A stretch of DNA of 64,000 bases, from NCBI RefSeq assembly GCF_051903065.1, contig NZ_CP178438.1; one strand, 5' to 3'. Shown in pieces: positions 6,372 to 63,903 of this stretch; position 1 is the first letter of the stretch; each line of letters begins with the position of its first letter. Under the pieces are notes generated by a model. The model had not been told where the DNA came from. It ran no database searches and worked only from the letters and a program-made list of their open reading frames with translations. Made by a program: the position numbers and the translations under genes. The DNA comes from Escherichia coli (GTDB lineage Bacteria; Pseudomonadota; Gammaproteobacteria; Enterobacterales; Enterobacteriaceae).

Positions 6372-7618
<1,247 letters not shown>

Positions 7619-16680: not shown

Positions 16681-16800
16681 TATTACTGCCGGATGCGGCG
16701 TGAACGCCTTATCCAGCCTACAAAACCTTGCTAATTCAATATATTGCAGGGACTATGTAGGCCTGATAAGCATAGCGCATCAGGCAGCTTTATGTTTGCA
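16681..16800. repeat. REP elements between cmoB and torZ
   Basis: gccggatgcggcgtgaacgccttatcc... and gcctgataagcatagcgcatcaggc palindromes. Confidence 0.75.
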
Positions 16801-20699: not shown

Positions 20700-20731
20700 A
20701 AAAAAAGGCCCCTGTTGAAATTGCAGGGGCC
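20700..20731 (-). terminator. rho-independent terminator downstream of cutC
   Basis: A-run + ggcccctg/caggggcc hairpin (plus-strand view). Confidence 0.7.
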
Positions 20732-20778
20732 TGGTACGAGCAAGCATCATATTGGGCGACATGATGCAACGGTAAAAA

Positions 20779-21534
<756 letters not shown>

Positions 21535-25233: not shown

Positions 25234-27311
25234 CATTTACCGCCAATTGTCGCCGTCATGCGGATATGTCGGTTATCAGATAGTTCCAGATTCGACAGCA
25301 CCACTAACTGCGGCAAGCTGCGGCGCAGAAAGCGAGACAATAATGGTCGCAGCGCGTGGTTCACCAACAATACTGGCGGCGCACCCAACATCTCCTGACG
25401 GGATAGCGCTTCCTGAGTTTGCGCCAGTAAACGATCCGCCAGCCCTGGCTCCAGTCCGCCCCCGCCCTGCAACGCCTGTAGCAACAAACGTTCCAGCGGT
25501 GTATCGAGGCCAATAACATGGACTTCATCTTTGCCAGGAAACCACTGCTGGGTAATCGCCCGTCCCAACGCCACGCGCACGACGGCGGTTAATTCATGTG
25601 GATCGCTTTGGATGGGCGCATGTTCCGCCAGCGTTTCGAGAATAGTGCGCATATCGCGAATCGGCACTTTTTCATCGAGCAGATTTTGCAGCACTTTATG
25701 CAGTGTGGTGAGCGTGACGACGCCAGGAACGAGATCTTCCGTCAGCTTTGGCATCTCCTGGGCGACGCGATCCAGCAGCTGTTGCGCCTCCTGACGACCA
25801 AACAGCTCTGCGGCATGCTGGCTAATGAGGTGGTTAAGATGCGTTGCTACCACCGTGCTAGCCTCAACCACGGTGTACCCCTGAATCTGCGCCTGTTCTT
25901 TTAGCGCACTTTCAATCCAGATAGCATTCAGGCCAAATGCCGGATCGATGGTCGCCTCACCAGGTAACGTCCCGGCAGCGGTTCCAGGGTTAATCGCCAG
26001 CCAGCGCCCCGGATAAGCATCACCACTGCCTATCTCCACGCCTTTCATCAAAATGCGATAGCGGGCAGGTTGCAGATCCATATTGTCGCGAATGTGCACC
26101 ACCGGCGGCAAGAAGCCCATTTCCTGAGCAAATTTCTTACGAATACTACGAATACGGCCCAGCAACTCGCCATCTTGTTGGAAATCAACCATCGGGATCA
26201 ATCGATAACCCACTTCCATTCCCAGAGAATCTTCCAGTTGTACATCGTTCCACGTCGCTTCGACAACGGTATTATTCTCTGCCATTTTTACCGGTTTGGG
26301 TTCGGCAGGCGCTTTTTGTTCGCGTCCGCGTATCCACCAGGCCAGCCCGAGCAATCCGGCAGTGAACAGCAAAAATACCAGGTTCGGCATTCCAGGCACC
26401 AGGCCGAGTAAACCGAGCACGGCGGCGCTTAACAACATAACGCTTGGGTTACTGAAAAGCTGATTCACCATCTGCTCGCCAACATCCTGATCGGTGCTGA
26501 CACGCGTAACGATGACCCCCGCGGCGGTAGAAATCACCAGCGCCGGGATTTGTGCCACCAGACCGTCACCAATGGTCAAGAGCGTATAACTTTCCGCCGC
26601 GTGTCCCATGCTCATGCCATGTTGCAGCACGCCGACCAGCAACCCGCCGACAACGTTAATGACCATGATGAGGATCCCGGCGATGGCATCGCCGCGAACA
26701 AACTTACTTGCCCCGTCCATTGAGCCGTAAAAATCGGCTTCCTGAGTCACTTCGGAGCGACGTTTTTTCGCCTCATCTTCACCAATCAATCCGGCGTTAA
26801 GGTCGGCGTCAATCGCCATCTGCTTACCCGGCATACCATCGAGAACAAAGCGCGCACCCACTTCTGCGATACGTCCGGCACCTTTGGTAATGACCATAAA
26901 GTTGATGATCACGAGAATGACGAACACCACGATACCGATAGCGAAATTGCCACCAACGAGGAAGTGACCGAACGCTTCGACCACCTTCCCAGCCGCCGCT
27001 GCGCCGGTATGCCCTTCCATCAAAATGATACGGGTTGAAGCCACGTTAAGTGCCAGACGCAACAGCGTGGTAAACAACAGAATGGTCGGAAACGCAGCAA
27101 ACTCAAGCGTGCGCTGGGTAAACATCGCCACCAGCAACACCATGATCGACAAGGCAATATTGAAGGTAAACAACAGGTCGAGTATGAATGCGGGCAGTGG
27201 CAGCACCATCATCGACAAGATCAACAGGATCAAAATCGGTCCGGCAAGGATCTGCCATTGTGTCGATTTCAGGTTTGCGGGCAGGCGCAGCATCGCGGCC
27301 AGATTACTCAT
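25233..27311 (-). CDS. flhA: flagellar export apparatus protein FlhA
   Basis: 692 aa from MSNLAAMLRLPANL; ORF track has 25-codon upstream extension. Confidence 0.93.
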   Translation of the reverse strand: MSNLAAMLRLPANLKSTQWQILAGPILILLILSMMVLPLPAFILDLLFTFNIALSIMVLLVAMFTQRTLEFAAFPTILLFTTLLRLALNVASTRIILMEGHTGAAAAGKVVEAFGHFLVGGNFAIGIVVFVILVIINFMVITKGAGRIAEVGARFVLDGMPGKQMAIDADLNAGLIGEDEAKKRRSEVTQEADFYGSMDGASKFVRGDAIAGILIMVINVVGGLLVGVLQHGMSMGHAAESYTLLTIGDGLVAQIPALVISTAAGVIVTRVSTDQDVGEQMVNQLFSNPSVMLLSAAVLGLLGLVPGMPNLVFLLFTAGLLGLAWWIRGREQKAPAEPKPVKMAENNTVVEATWNDVQLEDSLGMEVGYRLIPMVDFQQDGELLGRIRSIRKKFAQEMGFLPPVVHIRDNMDLQPARYRILMKGVEIGSGDAYPGRWLAINPGTAAGTLPGEATIDPAFGLNAIWIESALKEQAQIQGYTVVEASTVVATHLNHLISQHAAELFGRQEAQQLLDRVAQEMPKLTEDLVPGVVTLTTLHKVLQNLLDEKVPIRDMRTILETLAEHAPIQSDPHELTAVVRVALGRAITQQWFPGKDEVHVIGLDTPLERLLLQALQGGGGLEPGLADRLLAQTQEALSRQEMLGAPPVLLVNHALRPLLSRFLRRSLPQLVVLSNLELSDNRHIRMTATIGGK

Positions 27312-33290: not shown

Positions 33291-34952
33291 TCAAAATGTT
33301 TCCCAGTTTGGATCTTGTTCAGCAATTCGCAGTCGTGGCTGTGCCGGTGGTTGCTCACTAGCAGGACGGGATGGTGTTTGCGGTTTATTGGTGAGTGGGC
33401 TGGCTGCCAGACGAAACGCGGAAACCGCTTGCGTTAAACGACTTGCCTGTTCTTCCAGCGCAGCTGCGGCGGCAGCTGATTCCTGCACCAGCGATGCGTT
33501 CTGTTGCGTGACGCGATCCATTTCCGAAACCGCCAATGCGACTTGATCGATGCCACGGCTCTGTTCATCCGATGCCGATGCAATCTCGCCCATAATGTCA
33601 GTCACGCGAGTGACAGCATTGACGATATTGTTCATTGTTTCCCCGGCGCTTTCGACCAGCACCGAACCGGTATCAACGCGCGAGACGGAGTCTTCAATGA
33701 GAGCTTTGATCTCTTTTGCCGCCTGGGCGCTACGACTGGCAAGATTACGCACTTCGCCCGCCACCACGGCAAAACCACGGCCCTGTTCACCCGCTCGCGC
33801 GGCTTCAACCGCGGCATTCAGCGCGAGGATATTAGTCTGGAAGGCAATACCGTCGATAACGCTGATAATGTCGGCAATTTTCTTCGAACTATCGGCGATC
33901 TCATGCATCGTTTTCACTACGCCATCCACCACTTTGCCGCCGTGCTGGGCGGTGTCGGAGGCACTTTGCGCCAGTTGCGAGGCCTGGCGGGCGTTATCGG
34001 CATTTTGCTTCACTGTCGCGGTGAGCTGCTCCATGCTGGCGGCAGTTTCTTCCAGCGCGGATGCCTGCTGTTCAGTACGGGAGGAAAGATCGGTGTTGCC
34101 CGCCGCAATTTCACGGGTACCGGCATAGATGGCATCTGAACCTTCGCGGACATGAGTGACGGTGTCAGTCAAAGAGCGTTGCATATGTGAAACGCTCTGC
34201 GCCAGGTCGCCCATTTCACTGCGCCCGTCAATGGTCAGGGTATTCGCCAGGTTACCACCGGCGATTTCGCGAATGTGAGCAATAATTTTTGCCAGCGGTG
34301 TAAGCAACATACGGCGAATGCCGTACCACGCCACCAGCAGAATCAATACTACCACCAGCGCGATAACCGCCAGTTGCCACTGGGCAAATCGGTAATCATC
34401 TGCGTTGTCAGTGACGATATCGCGATACAGTTTTTCACTGCTGAGGGCGTACTGAGCAAACGCTTCGCCCATTGCATTTTGCATTCCCTGGGTTGGCTGA
34501 GCGAAATAAGCTCCAGTATTGCCATAATCAAGATAATCAATCAGCTCAGTTAACGCTGTGTAATAGTTTTTATATTTTTCATCAATATTACGACTGGTAG
34601 CGACCATTTCAGGTAACGGTGCCATGCTTTTGAATTTTTTATAATGAGTCGCGGCCTGGGCCAATGTTTTCCTGGCGCTATCGAGCAATTCAACTTTGGC
34701 ATTACTTTGTTGATTGGAGGAATCCATCATCATCCGCACCGCTGAACGACTCAGGTTAATGCGCGTTTGCAGCATTAAATCCCAGGTTGACGTCAGCTCG
34801 CCCTGCTGTTCCCGTAATTGATTGGAAACCACAAAGCTCTTCTGGCTATGGTGAAGGGAAGAAAAAAACAGACTGCCGGAAATAAGCTGTAACAGTGCGA
34901 ATACCCCCAGCACCATTACCAACAGCGTGACTACGCGGATACGGTTAATCAT
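33291..34952 (-). CDS. tar: methyl-accepting chemotaxis protein II (aspartate/maltose), NWETF C-terminus
   Basis: 553 aa from [11 protein letters not shown]; C-terminal NWETF pentapeptide. Confidence 0.95.
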
Positions 34953-34983
34953 AAGGCACCTTCCTGAAAACAAGTTGATCTCG

Positions 34984-35010
34984 TTATCGGCAAGAAGGGG
35001 GGAAACTTTA
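34984..35010 (-). promoter_or_regulatory. sigma-28 (FliA) class 3 promoter of tar operon
   Basis: minus strand reads TAAAGTTT-N11-GCCGATAA, consensus FliA promoter, just upstream of tar. Confidence 0.8.
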
Positions 35011-35036
35011 TTGCTGATGCCACCCGCCGCGAAATT

Positions 35037-35067
35037 GAAATAAAACCCGATGCGCAGATCATCGGGT
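35037..35067 (-). terminator. rho-independent terminator after cheW
   Basis: cccgatg...catcggg hairpin followed by TTTTATTT on minus strand. Confidence 0.8.
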
Positions 35068-35094
35068 TCATTTCAATTGAGGAAATCGGGAGAA

Positions 35095-35598
35095 TTACGC
35101 CACTTCTGACGCCGCGCTATCTAACAGCGCCATCTCTTCGCTGTTCAGCAGTTTTTCGATGTTCACCAGAATCAACATCCGGTCGCCCAGTGCGCCCAGT
35201 CCAGTGAGATATTCTGTTGAAAGCGTCACGGCAAATTCCGGTGCCGGACGAATTTGCTCCGCCGTCAATGAAAGCACGTCTGAAACGCCGTCAACCACGA
35301 TGCCGACCACCCGCTGTCCGAGATTCAGGACGATAACTACCGTGTTGTCGTTATAGTCCACATCCACCTGGCTGAACTTAATTCGTAAGTCAACAATCGG
35401 CACAATAACGCCGCGCAGATTCGTGACGCCTTTGATAAACGCTGGCGTGTTCGCAATCCGTGTTACCTGATCGTAGCCACGGATCTCCTGCACTTTCAGG
35501 ATATCAATACCGTACTCTTCATCACCAAGGGTAAATACCAGAAATTCCTGGCCTGACGGCTCGCTGGCCAGCTTTGTTACATTCGTCATACCGGTCAT
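35095..35598 (-). CDS. cheW: chemotaxis coupling protein CheW
   Basis: 167-aa ORF matching CheW. Confidence 0.97.
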
Positions 35599-35618
35599 AT
35601 TGTTACCTTTTTACTCAT

Positions 35619-38510
<2,892 letters not shown>

Positions 38511-38514
<4 letters not shown>

Positions 38515-39398
38515 GCTTCCTCGGTTGTCGTCTGTTGTTGCGGATTTTTCACCGCACGCACATGCTCTTCCAGTTCAATAAACGACGGACGTTCGCTGGA
38601 ATAGAGCGTTTTGCGACCAAACTCAACGGCGATAGGCGGTGCGTAACCGTTCAGATTAGAAAGCAGTGTGACTTTGACGCACTGCATCATTTTGCTGGTT
38701 TCGGCGCTTTTCTGACGTAAAACACTCGCTAATGGGGAAATAAATCCGTAAGCCAATAAAATGCCGAGGAAAGTCCCCACCATCGCATGTGCGATAAGCG
38801 CCCCCAGCTCGGCGGCAGGACGATCGGCTGAACCTAACGCGTGAACGACCCCCATTACAGCCGCGACAATACCAAACGCCGGAAGTGAGTCCCCGACCAG
38901 CGCCAGACTGTTCGCCGGGACTTCTGCCTCGCTTTCGTGCGTCTCAATCTCTTCATCCATCAGGGCTTCGATTTCGAAGGTGTTCATGTGACCGCTGATA
39001 ATCAGGCGCAGATAATCGACGATAAAATCAAGCATGACGCTATCCGCGATGATGCGTGGGTAGCTGGCGAAGATCTCGCTCTCACGGGGATTTTCAATAT
39101 CACGTTCCAGCGAAAACATCCCCATCTGCCGCGATTTCGCCATCAACCGATAAAGCAGAGCCAGCAGATCCATATACATTGCTTTGGTGTATTTGGAGCG
39201 ACGAAACAGCAATGGCAGCGCTTTAAGCGTGCCTTTAATCGCTTTGCCATTATTGCCGACGATAAACGACCCAATCCCTGCACCGGCAATAATCACCAGT
39301 TCAGCGGGTTGATAGAGTGCTCCAAGGCTTCCACCGGTCATCAAATAACCGCCGAAAACTGTACCGAGAACAACCAGGTAACCTAATAAGATAAGCAC
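38511..39398 (-). CDS. motA: flagellar motor stator protein MotA
   Basis: 295-aa ORF, 4-nt overlap with motB. Confidence 0.97.
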
Positions 39399-39466
39399 GA
39401 CATCATCCTTCCACTGTTGACCATGACAGGATGTTCAGTCGTCAGGCGTTAACGCGCGATTGGGGC

Positions 39467-39499
39467 AAAAAAAAGCAGCGGTACGTCGTTACCGCTGCT
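39467..39499 (-). terminator. rho-independent terminator after flhC
   Basis: agcagcggtac...gtaccgctgct hairpin with T8 on minus strand. Confidence 0.8.
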
Positions 39500-39524
39500 G
39501 GAATGTTGCGCCACACCGTATCAG

Positions 39525-40103
39525 TTAAACAGCCTGTACTCTCTGTTCATCCAGCAATTGTGGGATAATATCGGCAGGATTCTGGGAAAGTTTACGTCTT
39601 TTTACTGCCCGGGATGGCGGTTGACATAAGCTGCAGGCAAAGCTGCCAACAGGCTGGTGAGCGTGGGTAATAAAATTGCCGCCGCAGCAGTTGCAGCTGG
39701 AAAGTTGCAGTAATCCACTTTCAACAAACCGCACCAATGTCCAGGCACGGGTTAATGCCAGCAGCGGTCCTTCTTCTGCTTGCGGGCACTGTTCGAGGTA
39801 TAAACGGTAGGCTTTGATCACCGCATCGACGCCATTACACAAACCGGTTTTCAGTAAAAACTGCCATGCATTACAGAACATCGAAGCATGAACGTTTTGT
39901 TCCCAGGTCATAAACCAGTCGGTTGAAAATGGCAGCATGCCTTTCGGCGGTGGGCTTCCGCGCAGTTCTTTATAAAGTTTTATCAGGCGTCCGCGACTTA
40001 ACTGTGTTTCGCTTTCCAGCATCTGCAAACGAGCGCCCAGGGTGATCAATTCCATTGCCAGCTGAATATCCCGCGCTTCCTGAACAATGCTTTTTTCACT
40101 CAT
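39525..40103 (-). CDS. flhC: flagellar master regulator FlhC
   Basis: 192-aa ORF with Cys4 zinc site. Confidence 0.97.
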
Positions 40104-40105
40104 GA

Positions 40106-40456
40106 TCAGGCCCTTTTCTTGCGCAGCGCTTCTTCAGGCTGATTAACATCATTCAGCAAGCGTGTTGAGAGCATGATGCCGGTATGAATTTGCTGGAGAT
40201 CGTCAACGCGGGAATCTTGCGTCAACTGAGTAATCGTCTGGTGGCTGTCAAAACGGAAGTGACAAACCAGCTGATTGGTTTCTGCCAGCTTAACCATTTG
40301 CGGAAGAGTCAGTGCCGCTAATGTTGTCGCCATTTCTTCATTTATGCCGAGACGAAACATAGCGGACGCTTTGTCCTGAACAATCAGACGCTGTGCAAGT
40401 AGTAAATATGACAAGTTGATGTCATAAATGTGTTTCAGCAACTCGGAGGTATGCAT
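40106..40456 (-). CDS. flhD: flagellar master regulator FlhD
   Basis: 116 aa from [17 protein letters not shown]. Confidence 0.94.
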
Positions 40457-40717
40457 TATTCCCACCCAGAATAACCAACTTTATTTTTATGCGGTTTCAC
40501 CGCACCCCGTGATGTCGCCGGGAAGCCCCGGTAAAAAATAATTAGCATTAGAATAGTTGCGATAAGCTGCAATAAGCAGAGCCACCTTTTTGGTTTAATA
40601 AGTCCTTACAAATAGAAGGGGGTCTTTACACTTATCTAAGATTATTCCTAAATCGACGCAACTGTACTCGTCACTACACGCACATACAACGGAGGGGGGC
40701 TGCGATTTTCATTAATG

Positions 40718-40733
40718 TGTGATGCAGATCACA
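40718..40733. promoter_or_regulatory. CRP binding site in flhDC promoter
   Basis: TGTGATgcagaTCACA, perfect CRP half-sites, about 265 bp upstream of flhD ATG. Confidence 0.8.
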
Positions 40734-41235
40734 CAAATCACTCAATTACTTAACATAAATGTATAAGTCATACTTTTGTTTTGGGTGTATTTCAATCTGT
40801 TAAAAAGTTTTTCGCTACGCTAGCAAGCAAAAATGAAACAGGAATAATCGAAATGGGATGTTGCGCACAGTTAAAATAACTCACCGTAAATAATCATCTG
40901 CTATAAATAATCACTTTCATGCAATACCAGATAAGCTATTTTTAAACAGACACTTACCGCACAACAAACTAATTAAATACAAAGAAAGGCAACAATCAAC
41001 TTAATGTTAATAAAATGTTTTGCATATATTAACCACTTGTTTAATGCGGGGAATCAGTACATTATTTTCTTATAATTACAGTTGAAATCATATGATCACC
41101 GAGAGTGATTGATTAATTGTCTTTACTAATAATCAGACTAATATTTACCTGTTTGACTGAGTTGGGATTGCGTCGTTTCTCCATTAGGAGTAAAGCTTTA
41201 ATGTCACCTGAAGTTCACAGAATAAGGAACAGGTT

Positions 41236-41664
41236 ATGAGCTATAGCAATATTCTTGTCGCCGTTGCGGTTACACCGGAAAGTCAGCAACTGCTGGCAAA
41301 AGCGGTATCTATCGCCAGGCCAGTAAAGGGACACATCAGTTTAATTACTCTCGCTTCCGACCCAGAAATGTACAATCAATTAGCTGCGCCGATGCTTGAA
41401 GATTTACGCAGCGTGATGCAGGAAGAAACGCAAAGCTTTCTTGATAAGTTAATTCAGGATGCGGGGTATCCCGTTGACAATACGTTTATTGCCTACGGTG
41501 AGTTAAGCGAACATATTCTGGAAGTTTGTCGCAAATATCATTTCGATTTGGTGATTTGCGGTAATCACAATCACAGTTTCTTTTCGCGAGCATCCTGCTC
41601 GGCGAAAAGAGTGATTGCCTCAAGTGAGGTCGATGTGCTGTTAGTTCCACTTACGGGAGATTAA
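41236..41664 (+). CDS. uspC: universal stress protein C
   Basis: 142-aa ORF matching UspC/YecG. Confidence 0.93.
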   Translation: MSYSNILVAVAVTPESQQLLAKAVSIARPVKGHISLITLASDPEMYNQLAAPMLEDLRSVMQEETQSFLDKLIQDAGYPVDNTFIAYGELSEHILEVCRKYHFDLVICGNHNHSFFSRASCSAKRVIASSEVDVLLVPLTGD

Positions 41665-46621: not shown

Positions 46622-47611
46622 TTACTTACCGCCTAAACCTTTTTTCTCCAGTTCTTCTTTAAAGTTGTCACGCGTGATCAGCACCACGTCGGTAACTTCG
46701 GTGAATTTGGTCGGTTCAACACCTTTTGCTACCCAGTTGTAAAGCATTTCGCTGGACTTATAACCATGTACGTCCGGGCTTGGCAACAGGGAACCGTAGA
46801 AGCCGGTTGCCTGTGCCTTAGACAGTTCGCTCACCGCATCCACACCGTTAATACCGATACCGATGATATCGGCCGCTTTAAAGCCCTGACCTTCCGTCGC
46901 GCGTACGCCGCCCAGCACGGTGCTGTCGTTCATACCGACGATCAGCCAATGTTTAACTTCCGGATGTTGAACCAGCATTGAGTTGGCAGCGTCAAATGCC
47001 CCGGGGATGTCGTTAGATTTGGTAGGTACCTGATAAATTTGTTTTTCCGGGAATCCTGCAGCTTTCAGCGCATCCATAGAACCCGTAGTACGGCGACGAG
47101 CCGTATCCAGTTCGTTGGAGGTAATCGCCATCACCGCGCTTTCTTTGACATCCCAGCCACGTTTCTGCATCTCTTTATACAGTTCCTGGCCCTGACGTTC
47201 GCCAATTTTGGTCGCCGCCATCATCACCAGAGGAACGGTATCCATTGGCTTACCTTTGGCGTTAACAAACTGGTCATCCACGGCAATGACTTTCATATCG
47301 TAGCCACGCGCTTTCGCCACGATGGCAGAGCCGAGTTTCGGGTCCGGAGTACAAATAACGAAACCTTTTGCGCCACTGGCGGCCAGGCTATCGATCGCGT
47401 TCAATGTTTTTTCGCCATCCGGCACGGCAATCTTAATAACCTCAAACCCTAAATCCTTCCCGGCTTTATCGGCAAACTTCCATTCGGTCTGGAACCACGG
47501 CTCTTCCGGTTGCTTCACCAGGAAACCGAGCTTCAGGTTCTCCGCCATAGCGGATTGTGACATAACGGCTGCCAGACCAATGGCTGCCAGGGCTTTAGTA
47601 AATTTGTGCAT
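46622..47611 (-). CDS. araF: L-arabinose ABC transporter periplasmic binding protein
   Basis: 329 aa from MHKFTKALAAIGLAAVMSQSAMA (signal peptide). Confidence 0.94.
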   Translation of the reverse strand: MHKFTKALAAIGLAAVMSQSAMAENLKLGFLVKQPEEPWFQTEWKFADKAGKDLGFEVIKIAVPDGEKTLNAIDSLAASGAKGFVICTPDPKLGSAIVAKARGYDMKVIAVDDQFVNAKGKPMDTVPLVMMAATKIGERQGQELYKEMQKRGWDVKESAVMAITSNELDTARRRTTGSMDALKAAGFPEKQIYQVPTKSNDIPGAFDAANSMLVQHPEVKHWLIVGMNDSTVLGGVRATEGQGFKAADIIGIGINGVDAVSELSKAQATGFYGSLLPSPDVHGYKSSEMLYNWVAKGVEPTKFTEVTDVVLITRDNFKEELEKKGLGGK

Positions 47612-48406
47612 GGTTCTCTCCAGCTTTAGTGTCGTTTTGTGTAGGGCAAAAACGAATGACATTCGTTAAATTAATCGGAAAACAAAGCATTACCTTTTAA
47701 CTAAAAGATAAGTGACTGTGTTGACATAGTTTTAGCGAGAAATTAATTCTCCATAGGAGAGCAATATCACATCGCAGAATTACAGTGAGAACGTGCATAA
47801 ATTTAGCGGGAAAAGACATAAGGAAAGCCAATTTGTCAGACAAATTGTTGAATGCACAGCAGATTAATCCATAAGATTAGCCTGGAAATCCTTGTTGTCT
47901 TTGGTACCCATGCGGGATGTCTTCTTTGTAACCAGTCAATAGGCCGCATTACCTGGCGTTGAGTTTTTGAAATGGTGTAATAACCGCAACTCAAAGATGT
48001 GGAAAATGCACGTCATTCATTTCGTCATTAATTATCACTGTGCTCATTAATTAACAGAACACGTATAATGAGAGCCATCTCGCAAAAATGAAAAAACGTT
48101 TTATAAAATCATCACTTCATCATGAATTCAAATTCATTGATTAATATCAACAAGATACAAAAAGCACTATCATTAAAATTCATTGCAGTTACATTGATTT
48201 CATCAATGAAATGTAAAAATATATAAACTTGATGATTTAAGCATTTTCTTATACCCGTTCAGACGTTATTCTTATTTCAGATCATCGTCAGAATTGACTC
48301 CACGATCACATTTCGGACCGGCAGAAAGGAATTATTCTGCAAACAGTAATTATGGTGTTTTGATTTATCTTGCACCTCTCCACTTCTGGATATAAGGATA
48401 TTAGGT

Positions 48407-49523: not shown

Positions 49524-49539
49524 TGTGATGCAAATCACA
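49524..49539. promoter_or_regulatory. CRP binding site upstream of azuC
   Basis: TGTGATgcaaaTCACA about 85 bp upstream of azuC start. Confidence 0.75.
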
Positions 49540-53099: not shown

Positions 53100-53227
53100 A
53101 CGCTTTTCCTTGTGGATCTCAACTCGCCAGCACCTATCTTACATGCCGGTCCGTATCAGAGATACTTTTTGAGTGGCTTTGCCGGTGATTAAAAATCAAG
53201 GAGGGTGTAACGACAAGTTGCAGGCAC

Positions 53228-53250
53228 AAAAAAACCACCCGAAGGTGGTT
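53228..53250 (-). terminator. rho-independent terminator (tRNA-operon terminator homologue), repeat copy 1
   Basis: minus strand ccacc-ttcg-ggtgg hairpin + T7. Confidence 0.75.
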
Positions 53251-53294
53251 TCACGACACTGCTTATTGCTTTGATTTTATTCTTATCTTTCCCA

Positions 53295-53350
53295 TGGTAC
53301 CCGGAGCGGGACTTGAACCCGCACAGCGCGAACGCCGAGGGATTTTAAAT
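53295..53350 (-). other. 3' fragment (56 nt) of tRNA-Leu(UAA), att-site remnant
   Basis: revcomp ATTTAAAATCCCTCGGCGTTCGCGCTGTGCGGGTTCAAGTCCCGCTCCGGGTACCA = 3' part of leuZ from anticodon loop to CCA; 5' half absent. Confidence 0.85.
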
Positions 53351-53529
53351 TCTACGCAGGATCAATGAGTTACATAGCAGTGCATTGCGAAACTTTGCTG
53401 TAATTGTTTACTCATTTTACTGTAATTGGCAGTAAATAGATAGACTTGGATAACTTTGAGCACAGAATCTGCACAGGTAAGTCCCCTCTCACGGAGGCCT
53501 ACCTGTGCTATATCTATATGACTGCAAAG

Positions 53530-54171
53530 TTACGAGTTTGACTGGAAATCTTCAATTATCTTCTGATTGTAATCATCCAGATACTTTTGCAGTTCATCCC
53601 TGTCGATCAGACGTACCAAGGCTGATTCAGCTAACTCTTTCGCAGAGCGAGTGAGTAGGAATTAGTCACAACCATCGCCTCATCACAACCATAGAATGTT
53701 TTAGCAGAGATCACCTGCTGCACCGCCGAGTTACCTACAGAACCAGAATAATTTTTCGCCTGAATAACCATATCCTTACCAAATCGAGTGACGAAGAGAT
53801 CTGCCCCCTGATCTTGCGTTCTCTTGGTTTCTTTGACGTCATAGCCCATAGTCTGGAATACTTCCACAAGGAAATCTTCAAACTGGAAACCGTCCATTGC
53901 ATCAACTAAATACATGGTGACGAATTTGTTAGGGTTAAAATGTTCGAGCCGTGTAGCTAATCTATCAACCAGAATATCAAAATAAATATGTTCGCACACA
54001 GCTAAGTATTTTTTAACTTCATCAAATGAAACTAAAGGAACACCAGGCGTAGCCTCCACTTTTTCATTGAACTCTACTGATGAGAACTCTATTTTATTGC
54101 TCCATATATAGAATAGAAACAATGAAAGATCTGCCCTAAAAGTGGTACCCGCTTCCTCAATCCATGACTTC
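53530..54171 (-). pseudogene. Mrr-like (PD-(D/E)xK) restriction endonuclease pseudogene: 5' truncated by IS1, frameshift near 3' end
   Basis: ORF 53631..54185 has Mrr_cat-like ...GADLFVTRFGKDMVIQAKNYSGSVGNSAVQQV...; its apparent TTG start lies inside the IS1 end; -1 frame past the stop reads AKELAESALVRLIDRDELQKYLDDYNQKIIEDFQSNS. Confidence 0.7.
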
Positions 54172-54226
54172 GGTGATGCTGCCAACTTACTGATTTAGTG
54201 TATGATGGTGTTTTTGAGGTGCTCCA

Positions 54227-54502
54227 GTGGCTTCTGTTTCTATCAGCTGTCCCTCCTGTTCAGCTACTGACGGGGTGGTGCGTAACGGCAAAAGCACCGC
54301 CGGACATCAGCGCTATCTCTGCTCTCACTGCCGTAAAACATGGCAACTGCAGTTCACTTACACCGCTTCTCAACCCGGTACGCACCAGAAAATCATTGAT
54401 ATGGCCATGAATGGCGTTGGATGCCGGGCAACAGCCCGCATTATGGGCGTTGGCCTCAACACGATTTTACGTCACTTAAAAAACTCAGGCCGCAGTCGGT
54501 AA
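54227..54502 (+). CDS. insA: IS1 InsA
   Basis: 91-aa [25 protein letters not shown]... Confidence 0.95.
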
Positions 54503-54924
54503 CCTCGCGCATACAGCCGGGCAGTGACGTCATCGTCTGCGCGGAAATGGACGAACAGTGGGGCTATGTCGGGGCTAAATCGCGCCAGCGCTGGCTGTTT
54601 TACGCGTATGACAGGCTCCGGAAGACGGTTGTTGCGCACGTATTCGGTGAACGCACTATGGCGACGCTGGGGCGTCTTATGAGCCTGCTGTCACCCTTTG
54701 ACGTGGTGATATGGATGACGGATGGCTGGCCGCTGTATGAATCCCGCCTGAAGGGAAAGCTGCACGTAATCAGCAAGCGATATACGCAGCGAATTGAGCG
54801 GCATAACCTGAATCTGAGGCAGCACCTGGCACGGCTGGGACGGAAGTCGCTGTCGTTCTCAAAATCGGTGGAGCTGCATGACAAAGTCATCGGGCATTAT
54901 CTGAACATAAAACACTATCAATAA
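54421..54924 (+). CDS. insB: IS1 InsB (expressed as InsAB' by -1 frameshift at A6C, 54476..54484)
   Basis: 167-aa [19 protein letters not shown]...; slippery TTAAAAAAC present. Confidence 0.93.
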
Positions 54925-55001
54925 GTTGGAGTCATTACCGCCGCTTCACGCAATATCATTTCAGGCTGGCCCGGGAGCTTAATATTCCTCCCCAGGCAAT
55001 C

Positions 55002-55364: not shown

Positions 55365-55541
55365 AGCATTACAGTTTGCTCAGCAGGCCCCCCCTTCCCG
55401 GAAGAGTACCGGAAAACAGGCAAAGCGGCCTGGTTCTCTATGCTGGAGGCGACACGTTCAATTCGGCATTGCCAGGCTGTAGATTGCAGCTCATTGCACC
55501 CCGTGAGCACAGGATATGCACAGGGCGTGAATTGCATGCAC

Positions 55542-55567
55542 AAAAAAACCACCCGGAGGTGGTTTCA
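55542..55567 (-). terminator. rho-independent terminator, repeat copy 2
   Basis: A7 + ccaccc-gga-ggtgg hairpin, homologous to 53228..53250. Confidence 0.7.
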
Positions 55568-55606
55568 CGACACTGCTTATTGCTTTGATTATTCTGATGT
55601 TTCCCA

Positions 55607-55662
55607 TGGTACCCGGAGTGGGACTTGAACCCACACAGCGCGAACGCCGAGGGATTTTAAAT
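55607..55662 (-). other. second 3' fragment of tRNA-Leu(UAA), diverged
   Basis: same 56-nt fragment with two substitutions (gagTggg / cccAcac) that stay base-paired in the T-stem. Confidence 0.85.
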
Positions 55663-55938
55663 TCTACGTAGGATCAATGAGTTACATAGCAGTGCATTGC
55701 GAAACTTTGCTGACGTTGAATGGTCGTCTTTGCAACCACTGGCAGAAAATGGATAGCCGTAGATTGCGTTGAGCACAGAAACAGCACAGGGTAATCGTCT
55801 ACCTGGTCCTGTAAAGGAGGTTGTTGCCACACAAGCTAAAGCGCTTGACCTGCCCCCAGTATTCGGTACAACTGTCAGTTAGTAATGGACTGACCCCACC
55901 CCGGTAGACGATCCTGCCCTATAGTTACCTTTAACTAA

Positions 55939-58900
55939 TTATGCCAATTCAGACTCAAACGCTGCATCATTCGCTTCAGCCTCTGCGCCATCAATTAATG
56001 CCAAGACTCGGTCAAGAAAGCGTTGCGCTTCGTATACATCTGTTGCTTGCCGCAGATAATGAGGTATTCGTTCAACAAACTCGGAACGTGATAAAGGCTG
56101 ATGTTCCAGCAAAGCCTCAAGCATTGCGGGCCGCAACAAACGACGATCAGCATCAACATTAGGAAGCTCAACCTCAATGACATGTGTGGCAAAATACTTA
56201 AGTTGCTCCTTAAGCCCCAAATTGGGCATAAGAGAATCAATTGAGTCAGACGCCACTTCAGCGCTTGACTCAATCGTTTCTACATATTCATAGGAAGGTA
56301 CAACAACGTCTGGAGCCAATGTTTTAAGCTCATGGAGTTTACGGATAATCGGAGATAGAACCTCATCAGGATTACTGAACCAATCAGTGGACCAAATGCG
56401 GCTAATTCTCCAACCCAAACGCTCCAGAACCTCTTGACGCAAACGGTCACGATCACGAGCAGATTTAGCTGAGTGATAAGCCGCACCATCACACTCTATG
56501 CCCATTAAGTAACGGCCAGGACAACCTGGATCTTTCACAGCTAGATCAATAAAGAATCCTGCAACCCCTACCTGAGGTTCACACTCAAACCCAGCGTGAT
56601 TGAGTGCTTCCATTACAGCAACCTCAAAGTCACTATCTGGAGCCCTGCCGGTATGCGTTGTGAGGGAATCTAGTTTGCCACTTTCGGCAAACTGTAAAAA
56701 ACCTTTCAACGAAATAACACCAAGTTTACTGATTTCACTCGTCAATACATCTTCAGAACGCATTGAACTAAACACATGCATCCGTTTTTTTGATCGAGTG
56801 AAAAGCACATTCAAGCGACGCCAGCCAACATCGGAATTGATAGGTCCAAAGCGTTGATAAACCTTTCCACCATGCTCAGAAGGTCCATAGGTAAAGGAAA
56901 TAAAGATTACATCACGCTCATCCCCTTGAACGTTCTCAAGGTTTTTCACAAAAAGTGGCTCTTCCATGGCATATAAGCCATCGATTGCATCGTTAAATTC
57001 AGGGCGATTTCGGCGCAATTCATCGATAGCGCGCTCAATTTGATCGCGTTGCTTGGAACTCATGGCCACTACCCCGAGTGACTCACCCGGCCGGTGTTGC
57101 GCATGATGAAGTACGGCCTCAGCAACTGCTTGGGCTTCTTCAATATTGTGTTGATTGGAGAACCGACCTTTTGACACATAGGTAAATTTAATCCCATACT
57201 CTGGAGACTCAGCATTTGGGGAAGGGAATATCACCAAATCACTGTTATAAAAATGGCGGTTAGAGTATGCAATCAACTTTTCATGTCGTGAACGATAGTG
57301 CCAACGCAAACGTCTCATAGGAAACAGTGGCAAAGCAGCATCCAAAATGCTGTCAGTATCACTTAAAGCCGCGGCATCATCGTCATCTTCTCCGTCGGCA
57401 CTTCGATCAAAGAAACTGGTTGGTGGTAGCTGTTTCGGGTCACCAACGACCACTAGTTGCTTGCCCCTCGCGATGACACCCAATGCATCCTCTGGCTTCA
57501 CCTGAGACGCTTCGTCCATCACCACCAGATCAAATTCCATTCGTCCAGGTTCTAGGTAATGAGCTGCTGACATTGGCCCCATCATGAAACAAGGTTTAAT
57601 TGCAACCAGCGCATTACATGCACGGTTAACCAATTGCCTAATTGGAATATGTCTGGTTTTTTTACCCAACTCATTTTTGATCAAAGCTAGTTCTGTATAT
57701 TCACTTTTCTTACCACCAGAATTCCCTTCTGGTATATTTCGGCAAGCAATTTTTGCTGCAATCCGCTGACGTTGTAATTCAATCAGTTTTTTATCGTAAT
57801 CTTTAAATGACTTCTGCAAAGCATTGCGCTGTGAGCCGGAAACTCTCATCAATTCAGGGTGGATGTGAATAACCTCCCGCGCCAGCTGGTCATGAATTGC
57901 TAATGCTAAACCCAATTCAACTTTTTCAATCGGGAGCGAGCCCGCAAGTACAGCACTCCAGATTCGCTGCAATCCATTTTCATGCATCTGCTCGTAACAA
58001 CGAATAAAGTTAACCCACCCGTTCAACCAACGGGGTTGCTGTATTGCTCTTTCGTTGCGCTCGATTAATGTATTAAGAGAACCATCAGTCGACTTGAGCC
58101 ACTGACTCCGCTCTAACTTTGTTTCTAGCGCATATAACTCAGCATTTTTAATCTGTTCATTCCATTTCGAAACTATTTCCCCACCATCACGACATAGTAA
58201 ATCGTAATCACTACCACTAGCCAAATGTCTGATCTGGGTAGCCAAGGATACGCAATTTATCTTATCAACCAGTTGCTCGGCAAAATTCAGCGTGTCGTTA
58301 ATAGTGTCTAACGTCAGTTGATTATTTTTATACGCACCGCAAGCCAATGGGGTTAATTGTAAAAACGCCCCTAACTGTAACGAGTCATTTTCAAGGGATA
58401 TCTGAAGATCGTTTATGTTTTGCAAAATCTCGGAGGAATGAGTCATCTGCTCTAATGATATATCTGGATTGATAAACCATCCCTGCAAGGCAATGAGAGT
58501 ATTCCGCACCTGTCGGTAAGATTGCATCAATACACCTTGCTCACCTAACCAAGATGCATGTTCTTCCAACAAGCTAGAAATACGCGGTAATAACTTAGCC
58601 TCGTGCTCGACCCGTTTAACCAAAGTCATTAATCTTGAGCTAATCTGCGATTTCTCGATTAAATGCACACCTTTGATAATCTCACCATCTAGGTTAAATA
58701 ATCCAGAGCCTATCGCAACTCGCTTTCCAAAACCTATCCCGTAACAAGCTCGGACCTTCTTGTACCAATCACGCAATAACATGAGTTGTTCACAGTCGGT
58801 GTCCAACCCTCGGAATGCATTACCAAGTTGATTACCAAAGTCACTTTGTTCAAACCGTTGTAACAGCTCCGAATACTTGAGCAAATCAGCTGAGCAGCGT

Positions 58901-61686
58901 TTTAACTCAGCAAACTTAGTGTCAGGCTTACGAGATTGCGCCATGAGCAGTGCCTTGGCACTACGCCAATCACTCTTAAACCATGCAAATAATCCCCCTT
59001 GCTGGATAACAGCAACGGCATGCGCGAGCATCTCTTGGGAAGGCAACTGGTCCAATTGATACAAAGTAGATAGACCATCTCTTAAAGGACGCAATGTTTC
59101 GATTTGACACATTAAGTCGCGCAATACTGCATCGATATCATCATCATCAAAAAGAGGATCTCGAACTCTAATAAGCTCAGTCGGTAAAGCACCCAGAATC
59201 GACAACAACTCAGAGCAGAATAGCAATCCAGCTTGCGAATCATCGATATACGAAGCAATACCATCTGGCAAAGCATTTTTGAAATCGTTTAATTGCGCAT
59301 AAATAGATGATAACTCATCATGAATTGATTGGATGGATTCAAGCCACCTGACCAAATCACGTAAAGTGAAATCCTCTGCTGCACCATATTTTTCCAGCTC
59401 TTCACGAGGAAAGTCACACGATTGTCCTTGTTCTAAAAGTCGTAGCTTTTGAGGCTCGATAACCTGGCTCAAGGCCACATAATGACCTTGTAGCAACTCG
59501 AACCTATCTAAATAGTGACGCACCCGTGCAATGGCATCGGGTGAATCTAGCTCACTAAGTGCTGGGAAATGCTCTGAACCACACAACACTGGAAGATTCG
59601 ACTGATCTTCTACCAATTGCTCAATATATTGAAGCGTATTAAGGCTTTCGCCTTCTAACGCCCACTTATCTACATATTCTTGATAGCTATGTTGAAAGTC
59701 GATAATTGATGTCTGCCAAGTTTGTAGCAAATCGACTATACGAGCGCTGTCAAACAATTGAATTTGTGTGTTATTCACACCGCTCCAAGGGTGCTCATAT
59801 ATTTCTGCATTAGCCCCCACCTGCTCACGAACCTCTTTGTAGATGCGGCTAAACTCTACTATTTGGTCACGCAGCCGTAATTGGGTCACTTTATCCAACT
59901 GCTTCCCGGAAAGGTTTTCGATATGAAGTGCTGTTGCATCAATATCTAATTTGTGACGATAACGGGTTGCACCACTCAAAATCTGATGGATCGTTTTGCC
60001 TGTTTGCGCCCATTGGTTATTGATCAATGCGGCATATTCATTGAGCTGCTGCTTAAGATCTTCATAACGCAAAATCTGAGCATCAATCTCTTCCATAGTA
60101 GGCATGGTCGCCTGACTCACCAAGCGAGCATTAATATCATCCAGCACCTTGCGCTTATGAGTTTTATGACTGTGCAACTCTAAGCAAAATTGACCTAGCC
60201 CCGCACGATCCAAGCGACGTTTGACGACCTCCAGTGCAGCCATCTTCTCTGCCACAAACAGGACTTTCTTACCGTTGAGCAGAGCTGCTGCAATCAAGTT
60301 GGTGATCGTTTGTGATTTGCCACTACCAGGAGGGCCCTCAATGACTAAGTTTTGACCACGGATAGCATCGATCAACGCACTGTGCTGCGAGCTATCCGCA
60401 TCATCGATTAGTGGAACCTTGTCATGAATATCAGGGTAACTATCGATGCAGTACTCATGCTGACCGAAGCCACCAGGTAAGCCGGAATTCTCTTGACCAC
60501 AGCTCTGACTGGTGAAAAAGCGACGAATTACTTCATGAGACAATATATTGCGCTTGTCACAAGGCCAGCGGGCAGGATCGAGGTCAAGATACATCATCAT
60601 CTTGCCAAAATTGAGCAAGCTAAGTGCACCATAACGTTTCACAGACCATTTAGGTTTGTGCTGCTCTACAACCTTCTTCACCGAAGCAAAATAAGACTCT
60701 GGAGTTTCCTCTTCATTGAACAAAGGAAGAGCGAGGCCAAAGTCAGCCTGAAGTTTTTCCTTCAAAGAGAGATTGGGCAAAATATCTTCACCCGTGTAAT
60801 AAAGTTGAAACTTGTAAAGACCATCCTTCGGATCTAATTTTCCTCGTTCACATCTCACCGGAATTGTAAATAACGGTGCATAACGTGCCTTTTCAGAGGA
60901 ATCGCTTTCATACCACTCAAGGAACCCTAACGCCAAATACAAGATGTTGGCGCCACTCTCCTCCAAAGCAGTTTGAGCCTTACCATAGATGGCGCGCAAA
61001 CAAGCTTCCAGTTCATTTGGATAAAGCAGAGCCTGTATCCGATTATCGTCATGAGAGGGATTGGAAGAAGATATACTAATCTCATTCCCAGCCTTTGCCT
61101 GTCGTTCAAAATCCTCAAGCCCTTCATAGCCTGCTAAGCAGCACGCCTCCTTCAACGCTGACAAAGCTATACCTTGATTAACGTATTCAGAACGAATCCC
61201 TGTTAATTTTCCATTCTGGCCTTGGGCATATTGCAAGATAAACTGATGGGCTTTTTCCAGCAACTCTCTATCTGAATCAGAAACAACCGTTTTATGGCTA
61301 TCTGGTAAATCAAAATCTGTACGGATTCCTAAGACGTGCGCCCAATCCTTAGCGCTAGGATGAGCTCTTAACTGTATATCTTTACCATCTGGCCCAACTT
61401 TGAGATAGCCATGCTCTAACAGCTGCGCTCTAGTTGGATCGGGCACAGGAGCAAATTCCATCGGGATTTCCGAGCAAAGGGTTTCATAAAGCTGTTCTGG
61501 TAATTCATCAACAATACGTAGTGAAGACCCTTTTTGAGTGATAGGGAAATTCAAAAGTCGATTTCGAGACGTAAGGTCCAATAACTTCTTACGCATAGCC
61601 TCGAGGGAAGTCAGAATAAAATCTGAGCCTCCTTGATTGAGTTCCTCTGCTGTAGAGGTATCTACAGTCGACATAATGTTCTCCAT
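55939..61686 (-). CDS. giant helicase-nuclease (1915 aa): DUF4011-like N-terminus, Upf1-like SF1 helicase with ~940-aa insertion, C-terminal Vsr/DUF559-like nuclease domain
   Basis: LLDLTSRNRLLNF and LALGFLEWYE near N-terminus; Walker A GPPGSGKS (res 451-458, nt 60313..60336); DEAS (res 1391-1394, nt 57505..57516); VVVGDPKQLPP; GDERDVIFIS; GWRRLNVLFTRSKKRMHVF; C-terminal FFIDLA...IECDGAAYHSAKSARDRDRLRQEVLERLGWRISRIW (nt about 56377..56628). Confidence 0.85.
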   Translation of the reverse strand: MENIMSTVDTSTAEELNQGGSDFILTSLEAMRKKLLDLTSRNRLLNFPITQKGSSLRIVDELPEQLYETLCSEIPMEFAPVPDPTRAQLLEHGYLKVGPDGKDIQLRAHPSAKDWAHVLGIRTDFDLPDSHKTVVSDSDRELLEKAHQFILQYAQGQNGKLTGIRSEYVNQGIALSALKEACCLAGYEGLEDFERQAKAGNEISISSSNPSHDDNRIQALLYPNELEACLRAIYGKAQTALEESGANILYLALGFLEWYESDSSEKARYAPLFTIPVRCERGKLDPKDGLYKFQLYYTGEDILPNLSLKEKLQADFGLALPLFNEEETPESYFASVKKVVEQHKPKWSVKRYGALSLLNFGKMMMYLDLDPARWPCDKRNILSHEVIRRFFTSQSCGQENSGLPGGFGQHEYCIDSYPDIHDKVPLIDDADSSQHSALIDAIRGQNLVIEGPPGSGKSQTITNLIAAALLNGKKVLFVAEKMAALEVVKRRLDRAGLGQFCLELHSHKTHKRKVLDDINARLVSQATMPTMEEIDAQILRYEDLKQQLNEYAALINNQWAQTGKTIHQILSGATRYRHKLDIDATALHIENLSGKQLDKVTQLRLRDQIVEFSRIYKEVREQVGANAEIYEHPWSGVNNTQIQLFDSARIVDLLQTWQTSIIDFQHSYQEYVDKWALEGESLNTLQYIEQLVEDQSNLPVLCGSEHFPALSELDSPDAIARVRHYLDRFELLQGHYVALSQVIEPQKLRLLEQGQSCDFPREELEKYGAAEDFTLRDLVRWLESIQSIHDELSSIYAQLNDFKNALPDGIASYIDDSQAGLLFCSELLSILGALPTELIRVRDPLFDDDDIDAVLRDLMCQIETLRPLRDGLSTLYQLDQLPSQEMLAHAVAVIQQGGLFAWFKSDWRSAKALLMAQSRKPDTKFAELKRCSADLLKYSELLQRFEQSDFGNQLGNAFRGLDTDCEQLMLLRDWYKKVRACYGIGFGKRVAIGSGLFNLDGEIIKGVHLIEKSQISSRLMTLVKRVEHEAKLLPRISSLLEEHASWLGEQGVLMQSYRQVRNTLIALQGWFINPDISLEQMTHSSEILQNINDLQISLENDSLQLGAFLQLTPLACGAYKNNQLTLDTINDTLNFAEQLVDKINCVSLATQIRHLASGSDYDLLCRDGGEIVSKWNEQIKNAELYALETKLERSQWLKSTDGSLNTLIERNERAIQQPRWLNGWVNFIRCYEQMHENGLQRIWSAVLAGSLPIEKVELGLALAIHDQLAREVIHIHPELMRVSGSQRNALQKSFKDYDKKLIELQRQRIAAKIACRNIPEGNSGGKKSEYTELALIKNELGKKTRHIPIRQLVNRACNALVAIKPCFMMGPMSAAHYLEPGRMEFDLVVMDEASQVKPEDALGVIARGKQLVVVGDPKQLPPTSFFDRSADGEDDDDAAALSDTDSILDAALPLFPMRRLRWHYRSRHEKLIAYSNRHFYNSDLVIFPSPNAESPEYGIKFTYVSKGRFSNQHNIEEAQAVAEAVLHHAQHRPGESLGVVAMSSKQRDQIERAIDELRRNRPEFNDAIDGLYAMEEPLFVKNLENVQGDERDVIFISFTYGPSEHGGKVYQRFGPINSDVGWRRLNVLFTRSKKRMHVFSSMRSEDVLTSEISKLGVISLKGFLQFAESGKLDSLTTHTGRAPDSDFEVAVMEALNHAGFECEPQVGVAGFFIDLAVKDPGCPGRYLMGIECDGAAYHSAKSARDRDRLRQEVLERLGWRISRIWSTDWFSNPDEVLSPIIRKLHELKTLAPDVVVPSYEYVETIESSAEVASDSIDSLMPNLGLKEQLKYFATHVIEVELPNVDADRRLLRPAMLEALLEHQPLSRSEFVERIPHYLRQATDVYEAQRFLDRVLALIDGAEAEANDAAFESELA

Positions 61687-61860: not shown

Positions 61861-63903
61861 TTATTGCTGAATTTGATTGGATAGTAAGACCTGCAACATA
61901 TCTTGTTGATGCACAGCTATCTCATCTTCCAGCCAACGACCTTTATCTTTCATCAGCCGAATCATAGCAAGCAATTTAAGACTATCAGTCTGGTTATTGG
62001 CAAGGCTTGCTTCAAAGTGCTCCTGCTTCTGTTGCGGCTGGAAGTTACTCAAGCGCGAGTTCTTGCTGTGGCTGATAAGGCAAAGGTTGCCAAACGAATG
62101 GAGTGCACTCTGCTCAACCGGTTTATAGCCATCCATCGGATGCTGGGGTGAGAAGTGCTCCACCGAGCTGCGGAAAGTGAACTCAAAGGAGCCAGCAACT
62201 TTGTCGCTATTCCGATCTCGTACCCACAGCAGATAGTCGAGGAAGTTGAAGACAAAGTTGTTCTCGATATGACCGAAGCGAAGTTTGGATGTAATCACCT
62301 TGTGCCAACTCTCATCCACATTGATGGCGGGCAACAGGGCGTTATCAAGGTAGAGCATCTGGTAATAGGAAGCCCCTTCACCAGGCGCCAAAAAGCGCTG
62401 GAAGACAAAGCGGCGAGCCTGACTCTCCAGATAGGACAGATAAGCCCCGGCATCCACCGGTTGATCAGGGTGACAATTGTCGAACAGATATCTCAGTGCA
62501 CCATTCAGCCAATGTTTGTAAACCAGGGTCGGGGTCGACACATGAAACGCCGACAGCAACATCAGGACCCGCCGGTTAACACCAGAGAAACCATTCTCAT
62601 TTTCATCCTTGTCAAAGGTATTGATGTAACTGACGCTCTTTTCCGAATACCAGTGCAGCCGCTTCAGACTCCAACTATCCTTGCCATCGGCAAACTCGCG
62701 CTTGATGATGAACTGATCAAACAGATACTTGCTCTTTAACAGGCCATAGATAAAACGCTGAACTGCCGCTACTGGATCCGGTTGCCTTATCACTCGCAGC
62801 TCAAACTGATCGACCAGTTGTTTATCATCAAGCGGCACCCCCTCCGTATCACCCGGGTCGCGGCTCACGAGTCGCAGCACATGGAGCAAGAAGTTGGAGA
62901 AGTTGATGACGCTGTTAAAGCGCTCGGAGCCTGCGCTCTCCTCCTCCACCGTCTGCTCACCATCAAGCTTGTCATCCTGCAAAATGGCCAACAAGGTGCG
63001 CCCTTGGCTACCGGCAGCTGCACGGCTTTTATCGGCAGCGTCGGCCGTGTTTGGGGATCCTAGCAGATCAAGCAGATGGGCAAAGTCACGGGGCACAAAC
63101 TGACCCCAGTCGCTCTCACCAAACAGACGGTGGCGCTCTTGCGGGGTAAAGCCGTACTGGATATAGCGCTCCATATTGGCGCAGGCATCCCATACCCGGG
63201 TCAGGATATGAATACTTTGGCGACGATGCTCTTCCTCGGGTATCTGGTTCAGCGTCTCCATCAGCCGCGCCTTGATCACTTCATGCTTTTCCAACTGCTC
63301 GCCGCGATTGTTCATCGCCTCGAAGAAGTGATTGAGATCGGTATCCTTGGGTACTTCGATACGAGAGATCTGCACATGCTTGAAGAGGTAGTCGCAAAAG
63401 GTCGTCAGTTTAGCCCCTACCAAACCAAGATCCGCCATTGCCTTGCCAATCAGCTCAAAACCGTTCACCAAACCTTCATTGAAGGTACTCCCCCGCAAAT
63501 CGTAGGGGGCAACACCCTGCCATAAGCGCTCGAAGGTATGGCTCGATATCGGGCGACTCTCAAAAGCGAGGTTGATGGTCTGATACCAGCTCATATCCAC
63601 CGAATCTATCGCGTGATGTTTGAGCCAATTGGCCAGCAGAGAGAGGGTAGTAAAGCGCTGCTGGCCATCGATTACCTCGAAACTGCCATCGTCCCGGGCA
63701 AACACCACCAGGGTGCCGATATAGTAGGTTTGCGGCCCCTTACCACTGACCAATTTTTGCTGATAATCCAGCACATCCTGCAGCAGCTGGGTGATCTCTC
63801 CCTCACCCCAGGCATAGTTGCGCTGGTACATGGGCACCAGATAGCGGGCGCGATCTTCAAGCAGTGCACGAATGGAAAAGGGGCGAACGCCTGCATCATT
63901 CAT
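61861..63903 (-). CDS. DUF262 (ParB-like NTPase/nuclease) + DUF1524 (His-Me finger) protein, GmrSD-like putative type IV restriction enzyme
   Basis: N-terminal [16 protein letters not shown] and [12 protein letters not shown] (res 79-83); C-terminal [12 protein letters not shown]...[18 protein letters not shown]. Confidence 0.85.

Follow-up and report, generated by a model that had tools for sequence, protein, structure and literature searches.

The flhD-uspC intergenic region of an Escherichia coli chromosome lacks the IS insertions found upstream of flhD in K-12 laboratory strains

Introduction

Does the DNA upstream of flhD in this Escherichia coli chromosome carry an activating insertion sequence (IS), as in motile K-12 laboratory strains, or is it the native control region, and what would either state mean for motility? 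In poorly motile K-12, flhD expression and motility are reported to increase when an IS inserts anywhere between about -96 and -476 (PMC5100188, PMC5493358, PMC5289928), and one of these reports gives activating insertions at -166, -303 and -315 and out to -476 (PMC5100188). In an ST131 strain, hyper-motile mutants were enriched for transposon insertions in the flhDC intergenic region, and the authors ascribed the hyper-motility to read-through transcription from the transposon (PMC5425062). An earlier note on the present DNA proposed that the region is free of IS1 and IS5. The window referred to below is the whole stretch of DNA that was analysed, 64,000 nucleotides in length.

Methods

Positions relative to the flhD transcription start follow K-12: in the MG1655 annotation the antisense RNA AsflhD extends to a point 198 nt upstream of the ATG of flhD (ATG+198), and the alignment to the window over this stretch is gap-free, which places +1 at 40654. 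AsflhD was located via this annotation, AsflhD and MotR being absent among the Rfam matches.

Mobile-element ends were searched by pattern for IS1 and IS5 only, and direct comparison of the spacer with other E. coli served as the more general test. Counts were taken over 5,426 complete E. coli genomes. Pieces separated by less than about 890 bp are merged in this search, and IS1-split loci of the MG1655 type thus count as one place; the 5271 of 5426 genomes in which a single place covers at least 80% of the full-length query therefore include IS1-split loci and are not a count of uninterrupted spacers. The uninterrupted state was instead counted with two 450-bp half-queries, which are not bridged across IS1. 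The window covers flhDC and the neighbouring flh, che and mot genes; the rest of the flagellar regulon (fliA, fliC, the flg operons) and its trans-acting regulators are encoded elsewhere on the chromosome.

Results

The spacer between the divergent genes flhD (minus strand) and uspC (plus strand), which is the position of the native flhDC class I regulatory region, occupies 40457-41235 of the window. The region of about 780 bp, AT-rich and upstream of flhD, that the earlier note described holds to its exact coordinates, with a length of 779 bp and a G+C content of 35.3% versus 49.9% for the whole window. This value falls in the lowest 0.3% among all 779-bp windows of the stretch, and G+C drops to 28-32% across 40700-41200. 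The genes and the AT-rich part of the spacer are as follows.

39525-40103, minus strand: flhC, 192 aa, 100% amino-acid identity to K-12 FlhC
40106-40456, minus strand: flhD, ATG at 40456, 116 aa, first gene of the flhDC class I operon (from the ORF list)
40734-41235, no strand: AT-rich upstream region, 31% G+C, common to the divergent uspC promoter; in K-12, IS insertions in this zone activate flhDC
41236-41664, plus strand: uspC, 142 aa, divergent neighbour of flhD (from the ORF list)

On the minus strand flhD and flhC are followed by motAB, cheAW, tar, tap, cheRBYZ and flhBAE, and on the plus strand uspC is followed by otsAB and araHGF. The sole other stretch equally AT-rich, at about 47600-48400 (34.4% G+C over 779 bp), is the long araF-ftnB intergenic region.

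The pattern search found no IS1 terminal repeats in the spacer, the sole IS1 end in the 64-kb window lying at 54172, and no IS5 ends, the sole match in the window (50881) having three mismatches and being at chance level. Within the spacer there are no direct or inverted repeats of at least 12 bp, and no Rfam matches either at the gathering threshold or at E-values up to 1. The spacer is collinear with IS-free E. coli spacers, with no large indel; it measures 778-780 bp in 10 diverse E. coli chosen across the identity range and is 95-100% identical in 5,407 of 5,421 matching genomes. Its copy number per genome has a median of one place and a maximum of two, and such single-copy DNA contains no repeated mobile DNA. 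The gap-free alignment, the panel lengths and the single copy together rule out other mobile elements as well. Had an IS once inserted here and later been excised precisely, the spacer would show no sign of it.

The spacers of MG1655 and W3110 are 1555 bp and 1978 bp long, respectively, and BLAST splits each around an insert. The MG1655 spacer consists of 779 bp plus IS1 (IS1H, 768 bp) plus an 8-bp target duplication, CATAAATG, with IS1 after -107, and its junction reads TTAACATAAATG, IS1, CATAAATGTATAAG. In W3110 the 779 bp are lengthened by IS5 (1195 bp), which sits at TTAA (-99 to -96), and by its 4-bp duplication, and the junction reads ATTACTTAA, IS5, TTAACATAAATG. The published IS5 position, -99 to -96, agrees with the present numbering (PMC5100188). 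Subtracting the IS and the duplication from both strains leaves two identical 779-bp sequences, to which the window spacer aligns with 18 substitutions and no indel (97.7% identity). Both target sites are empty in the window, and neither the duplicated target nor the 0.8-1.2 kb lengthening of an IS-activated allele is present.

40750-40753, no strand: empty IS5 target TTAA (the W3110 site), -96 to -99, one copy in the window
40754-40761, no strand: empty IS1 target CATAAATG (the MG1655 site), one copy in the window

The alignment to MG1655 and W3110 that the earlier note proposed as a check has thus been run, and the window corresponds exactly to the spacer left after removal of the IS and its duplication. 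The note's claim that the region has no IS1 or IS5 terminal sequences is upheld by the lack of ends and repeats and by the gap-free alignment with the IS-subtracted K-12 spacer, and the contrast it drew with motile K-12 derivatives is accurate for both strains, MG1655 holding IS1H and W3110 IS5, with neither in the window.

Of the 5,426 complete genomes, 5251 have an unbroken flhD-proximal half of the spacer and 5363 an unbroken distal half, so the spacer is uninterrupted in about 96-97% of genomes, and the interruptions are concentrated near flhD. An IS-free spacer is therefore the species norm and not a distinguishing mark of the present strain. Junctions of the MG1655 IS1 type and the W3110 IS5 type occur in 54 and 55 of the 5426 genomes, respectively; the 40 genomes listed for each type are all K-12-sized (about 4.5-4.7 Mb) and mostly named as K-12 or laboratory strains. 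IS1 was also seen in the flhD-uspC spacer of pig isolate EC19 at -206 to -214 (window 40860-40868) and of chicken-meat isolate HCM-28C-2 at -161 to -170 (window 40815-40824), positions not seen in K-12, and urine isolate E05 has an IS1-linked deletion of window 34707-41014, comprising flhDC, motAB, cheAW and part of tar.

Empty YTAR tetramers are present further upstream at -166 (CTAG, 40820-40823), -315 (CTAA, 40969-40972) and -472 (CTAA, 41126-41129), and the reported IS5 positions -166, -315 and about -476 coincide with these empty CTAG/CTAA tetramers. A complete IS1 copy lies about 13 kb from this empty insertion hot spot. Because every documented IS target is empty and an IS1 is 13 kb away, motile IS-insertion mutants could arise under soft-agar selection, and would parallel those reported for K-12.

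The control elements of flhD could be placed on the spacer as follows.

40435-40654, plus strand: AsflhD antisense RNA region, by homology to MG1655 b4839
40457-40654, minus strand: flhD 5' leader, 198 nt, extent by homology to K-12
40637-40650, minus strand: RcsB/RcsAB box TAGGAATAATCTTA, +5 to +18, fitting TN(G/A)GA-N4-TC(T/C)NA
40654, minus strand: putative flhD transcription start (+1, G), by homology to K-12
40661-40689, minus strand: core sigma-70 promoter, -35 TTGTAT (40684-40689), 17-bp spacer, -10 TACAGT (40661-40666)
40718-40733, no strand: cAMP-CRP site TGTGATGCAGATCACA, perfect TGTGA-N6-TCACA core

The -35 and -10 hexamers agree with the consensus at 8 of 12 positions, too few to reach the threshold of the promoter scanner, and the flhD promoter was therefore not called. 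Weak hexamers are consistent with an activator-dependent promoter. The scanner's one plus-strand consensus match has no supporting evidence and was set aside.

The earlier note was also correct in reporting a CRP site in the spacer: TGTGATGCAGATCACA has a perfect core at 40718-40733, centred at 40725.5, which is -71.5 from the homology-placed start site. CRP activates the flhD promoter in class I mode. Perfect TGTGA-N6-TCACA cores occur twice in the 64 kb versus 0.10 expected by chance; the second, TGTGATGCAAATCACA, lies at 49524-49539 between azuC and yecR, and the azuC/AzuR locus is CRP-regulated. At 40718 (-64) the window has T and K-12 has C, which breaks one of the CRP pentamers (on the flhD strand it reads TCACG). 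The exact 16-mer of the window recurs in nine of the 10 other panel strains, and in the tenth, DA33137, the site differs only in the N6 spacer, with both pentamers perfect. With perfect pentamers in the window and in all ten other panel strains, K-12 is the outlier, and to judge by the sequences it appears to be K-12, not the wild isolates, that bears a weaker-looking, non-consensus CRP site.

Downstream of +1 are the RcsB box and a 198-nt leader with GGA motifs near its 5' end, at +7 to +9 (40646-40648) and +50 to +52 (40603-40605). Small RNAs base-pair with the flhD leader, as known from K-12 work. The box fits the structurally defined RcsB motif, TN(G/A)GA-N4-TC(T/C)NA (PMC7913699); the K-12 and Salmonella box is TAGGAAAAATCTTA (PMC5758874), and the A>T change of the window at +11 (40644) sits in the unspecified N4 of the motif. 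Two CsrA sites near the 5' end of flhD mRNA are reported to protect it from RNase E (PMC7652899), and the GGA motifs at +7 and +50 are consistent with those two sites and may correspond to them. The DNA of 40388-40456 is identical to K-12, including flhD codons 11-19 (40400-40426), at which AsflhD promoter mutations were made in K-12 (PMC9600491).

Footprints of H-NS, LrhA, OmpR, Fur, IHF, QseB, MatA and YjjQ are reported for the flhDC control region. One report describes the flhDC upstream region as a SIDD region bound by several repressors (PMC5493358).

The window holds 15 flh, che and mot genes, each of full length and gap-free when compared with K-12. FlhD has 100% amino-acid identity to the K-12 protein and its gene three synonymous DNA differences. 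The window is 99.99% identical over 40.8 kb to strain 23CRST027, from human faeces in Ecuador, and the source strain is essentially the same clone. In the window flhA (25236-27311) is intact and encodes 692 aa with 99.7% identity to K-12; in the near-identical genome of 23CRST027 flhA is annotated as frameshifted (2080 bp), so either the two genomes truly differ by 1 nt here or the 23CRST027 record contains an assembly error.

The window also contains the edge of what looks like an island integrated into the tRNA-Leu gene leuZ (53297-53350, minus strand). Homology with K-12 and O157:H7 ends inside leuZ, at 53349/53350, and only the 3' part of about 54 nt is left beside yecA, with foreign DNA beyond; ARAGORN finds no tRNA genes anywhere in the window. 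In O157:H7 PV15-279 a phage integrase gene and phage-like genes adjoin yecA at the equivalent site. An imperfect direct repeat of about 263 bp (53218-53480 and 55532-55794, 87% identical) has in each copy the leuZ 3' fragment and its 3'ETS/terminator flank, then about 60 nt of matching island-side sequence, and in the second copy a T-stem base pair is changed on both sides (GCGGG/CCCGC to GTGGG/CCCAC). The repeat suggests that two related elements integrated in tandem, the first of which (about 2.2 kb) would be degraded. An ORF at 53631-54185 (minus strand) has an Mrr-like restriction endonuclease domain (Pfam Mrr_cat, E=3e-21); its 5' end overlaps the end of the complete 768-bp IS1 (54172-54939), and the annotation of 23CRST027 lists its counterpart as a partial restriction endonuclease without the N-terminus. 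The island also holds two anti-phage defence genes, one for a 1915-aa Hhe protein (55939-61686, minus strand; PADLOC Hhe, 4303 bits, full length) with DUF4011, helicase and MTES_1575 nuclease domains and the other for a 680-aa GmrSD-like type IV restriction protein (61861-63903, minus strand; GmrSD_N and GmrSD_C). Rfam matches above the gathering score are MicL (20700-21007, minus strand, within cutC), C0465 (35000-35075, plus strand, between tar and cheW), naRNA4 (6431-6506, minus strand) and ES036 (16722-16764, plus strand), all of which are known E. coli small RNAs or elements.

Discussion

The region is very probably the native, never-interrupted flhD-uspC spacer of a commensal-type E. coli, equipped with the usual class I flagellar promoter and the sites that control it. 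By transfer from K-12 work, the weak sigma-70 promoter (TTGTAT, 17 bp, TACAGT) would fire only with cAMP-CRP bound at -71.5, the roughly 500 bp of AT-rich upstream DNA would act as a repression platform for H-NS, LrhA, OmpR, Fur, IHF, MatA and YjjQ, and the RcsB box at +5 to +18 would block transcription under envelope stress. The 198-nt leader would add post-transcriptional control by CsrA, through RNase E protection, and by the AsflhD antisense RNA. The occupancy of these sites by their proteins is thus predicted from K-12, as are the start site and the resulting motility. As the promoter is not cut off from its upstream DNA by an IS, these native inputs should continue to govern flhDC expression, and it is a reasonable inference, as the earlier note had proposed, that motility here depends on native regulation.

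The chance that the spacer conceals mobile DNA of some other kind, be it a different IS family, a MITE or the scar of an IS, is negligible. The pattern search covered IS1 and IS5 ends only, and natural isolates do have IS1 elsewhere in this spacer, but the spacer aligns without gaps to IS-less K-12, is within 1 bp of the length in 10 diverse strains, is single-copy per genome, has no direct or inverted repeats of at least 12 bp, and holds the K-12 target sequences unduplicated. A less remote alternative, though still an unlikely one, is that the state of the promoter region has no bearing on the phenotype, because lesions elsewhere, such as in other flagellar operons or in regulators like lrhA, leave the strain non-motile or abnormally motile. 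The flhA annotated as frameshifted in near-identical 23CRST027 speaks for it, as do the loss of a whole flhDC-tar segment by IS1-linked deletion in a natural isolate and the reported finding that motility variation among natural isolates correlates with class III expression and not with PflhD activity (PMC5289928); against it, flhA and the 14 other flh, che and mot genes of the window are full length and gap-free relative to K-12.

It is also improbable that the region, while native, has been retuned by substitutions of its lineage, at +11, -58 and -84, so that motility differs from that of close relatives. These three alleles are private to the window in a 12-sequence panel, are its only spacer differences from O157:H7 PV15-279 and are confined to 95 bp at the promoter: +11 lies next to the first GGA motif, in the spacer of the RcsB box, and -58 and -84 lie on either side of the CRP site. 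Only two complete genomes have a spacer 100% identical to that of the window, and a third is at 99.9%. However, +11 changes an unspecified position of the RcsB motif, the CRP pentamers and the -35 and -10 hexamers are unaltered, and a significant cluster of private substitutions was considered and rejected: sequence divergence from O157:H7 averages 0.93% per bp, and at least three O157:H7 differences occur in 10% of 95-bp windows, so three substitutions are not unusual as a cluster. That the three, which set this clone apart from its nearest clade, together shift the set-point of flhDC expression has a very slim chance of being true; if it were, they would constitute a natural cis-regulatory motility variant working without an IS element.

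The native-spacer reading agrees with what is already known, in that an IS-free flhDC region is the default state of the species and the K-12 IS1 and IS5 insertions are the exception. Both the DNA upstream of flhDC and the way IS1 and IS5 activate the operon in K-12 are familiar from textbooks, and the main use of the present analysis is correct annotation: the clone should not be assumed to act like motile K-12 laboratory stocks.

Compared with known systems, the MG1655 and W3110/MC4100/DH10B-type regions have the same flanking genes and the same 779-bp spacer DNA as the window. The W3110/MC4100/DH10B-type regions bear the 1195-bp IS5, whereas the window keeps TTAA empty, and continued native control of flhDC here would contrast with MG1655 (IS1 at -107) and W3110 (IS5 at -99). 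The spacer of IS-less K-12 (e.g. the MG1655 stock NZ_CP010442.1) is also 779 bp, gap-free against the window, and the two are alike in promoter hexamers, RcsB box motif, leader length and IS target sites. The O157:H7 spacer (e.g. PV15-279) is likewise 779 bp and 99.6% identical to the window, with an identical distal 450 bp and the same CRP core.
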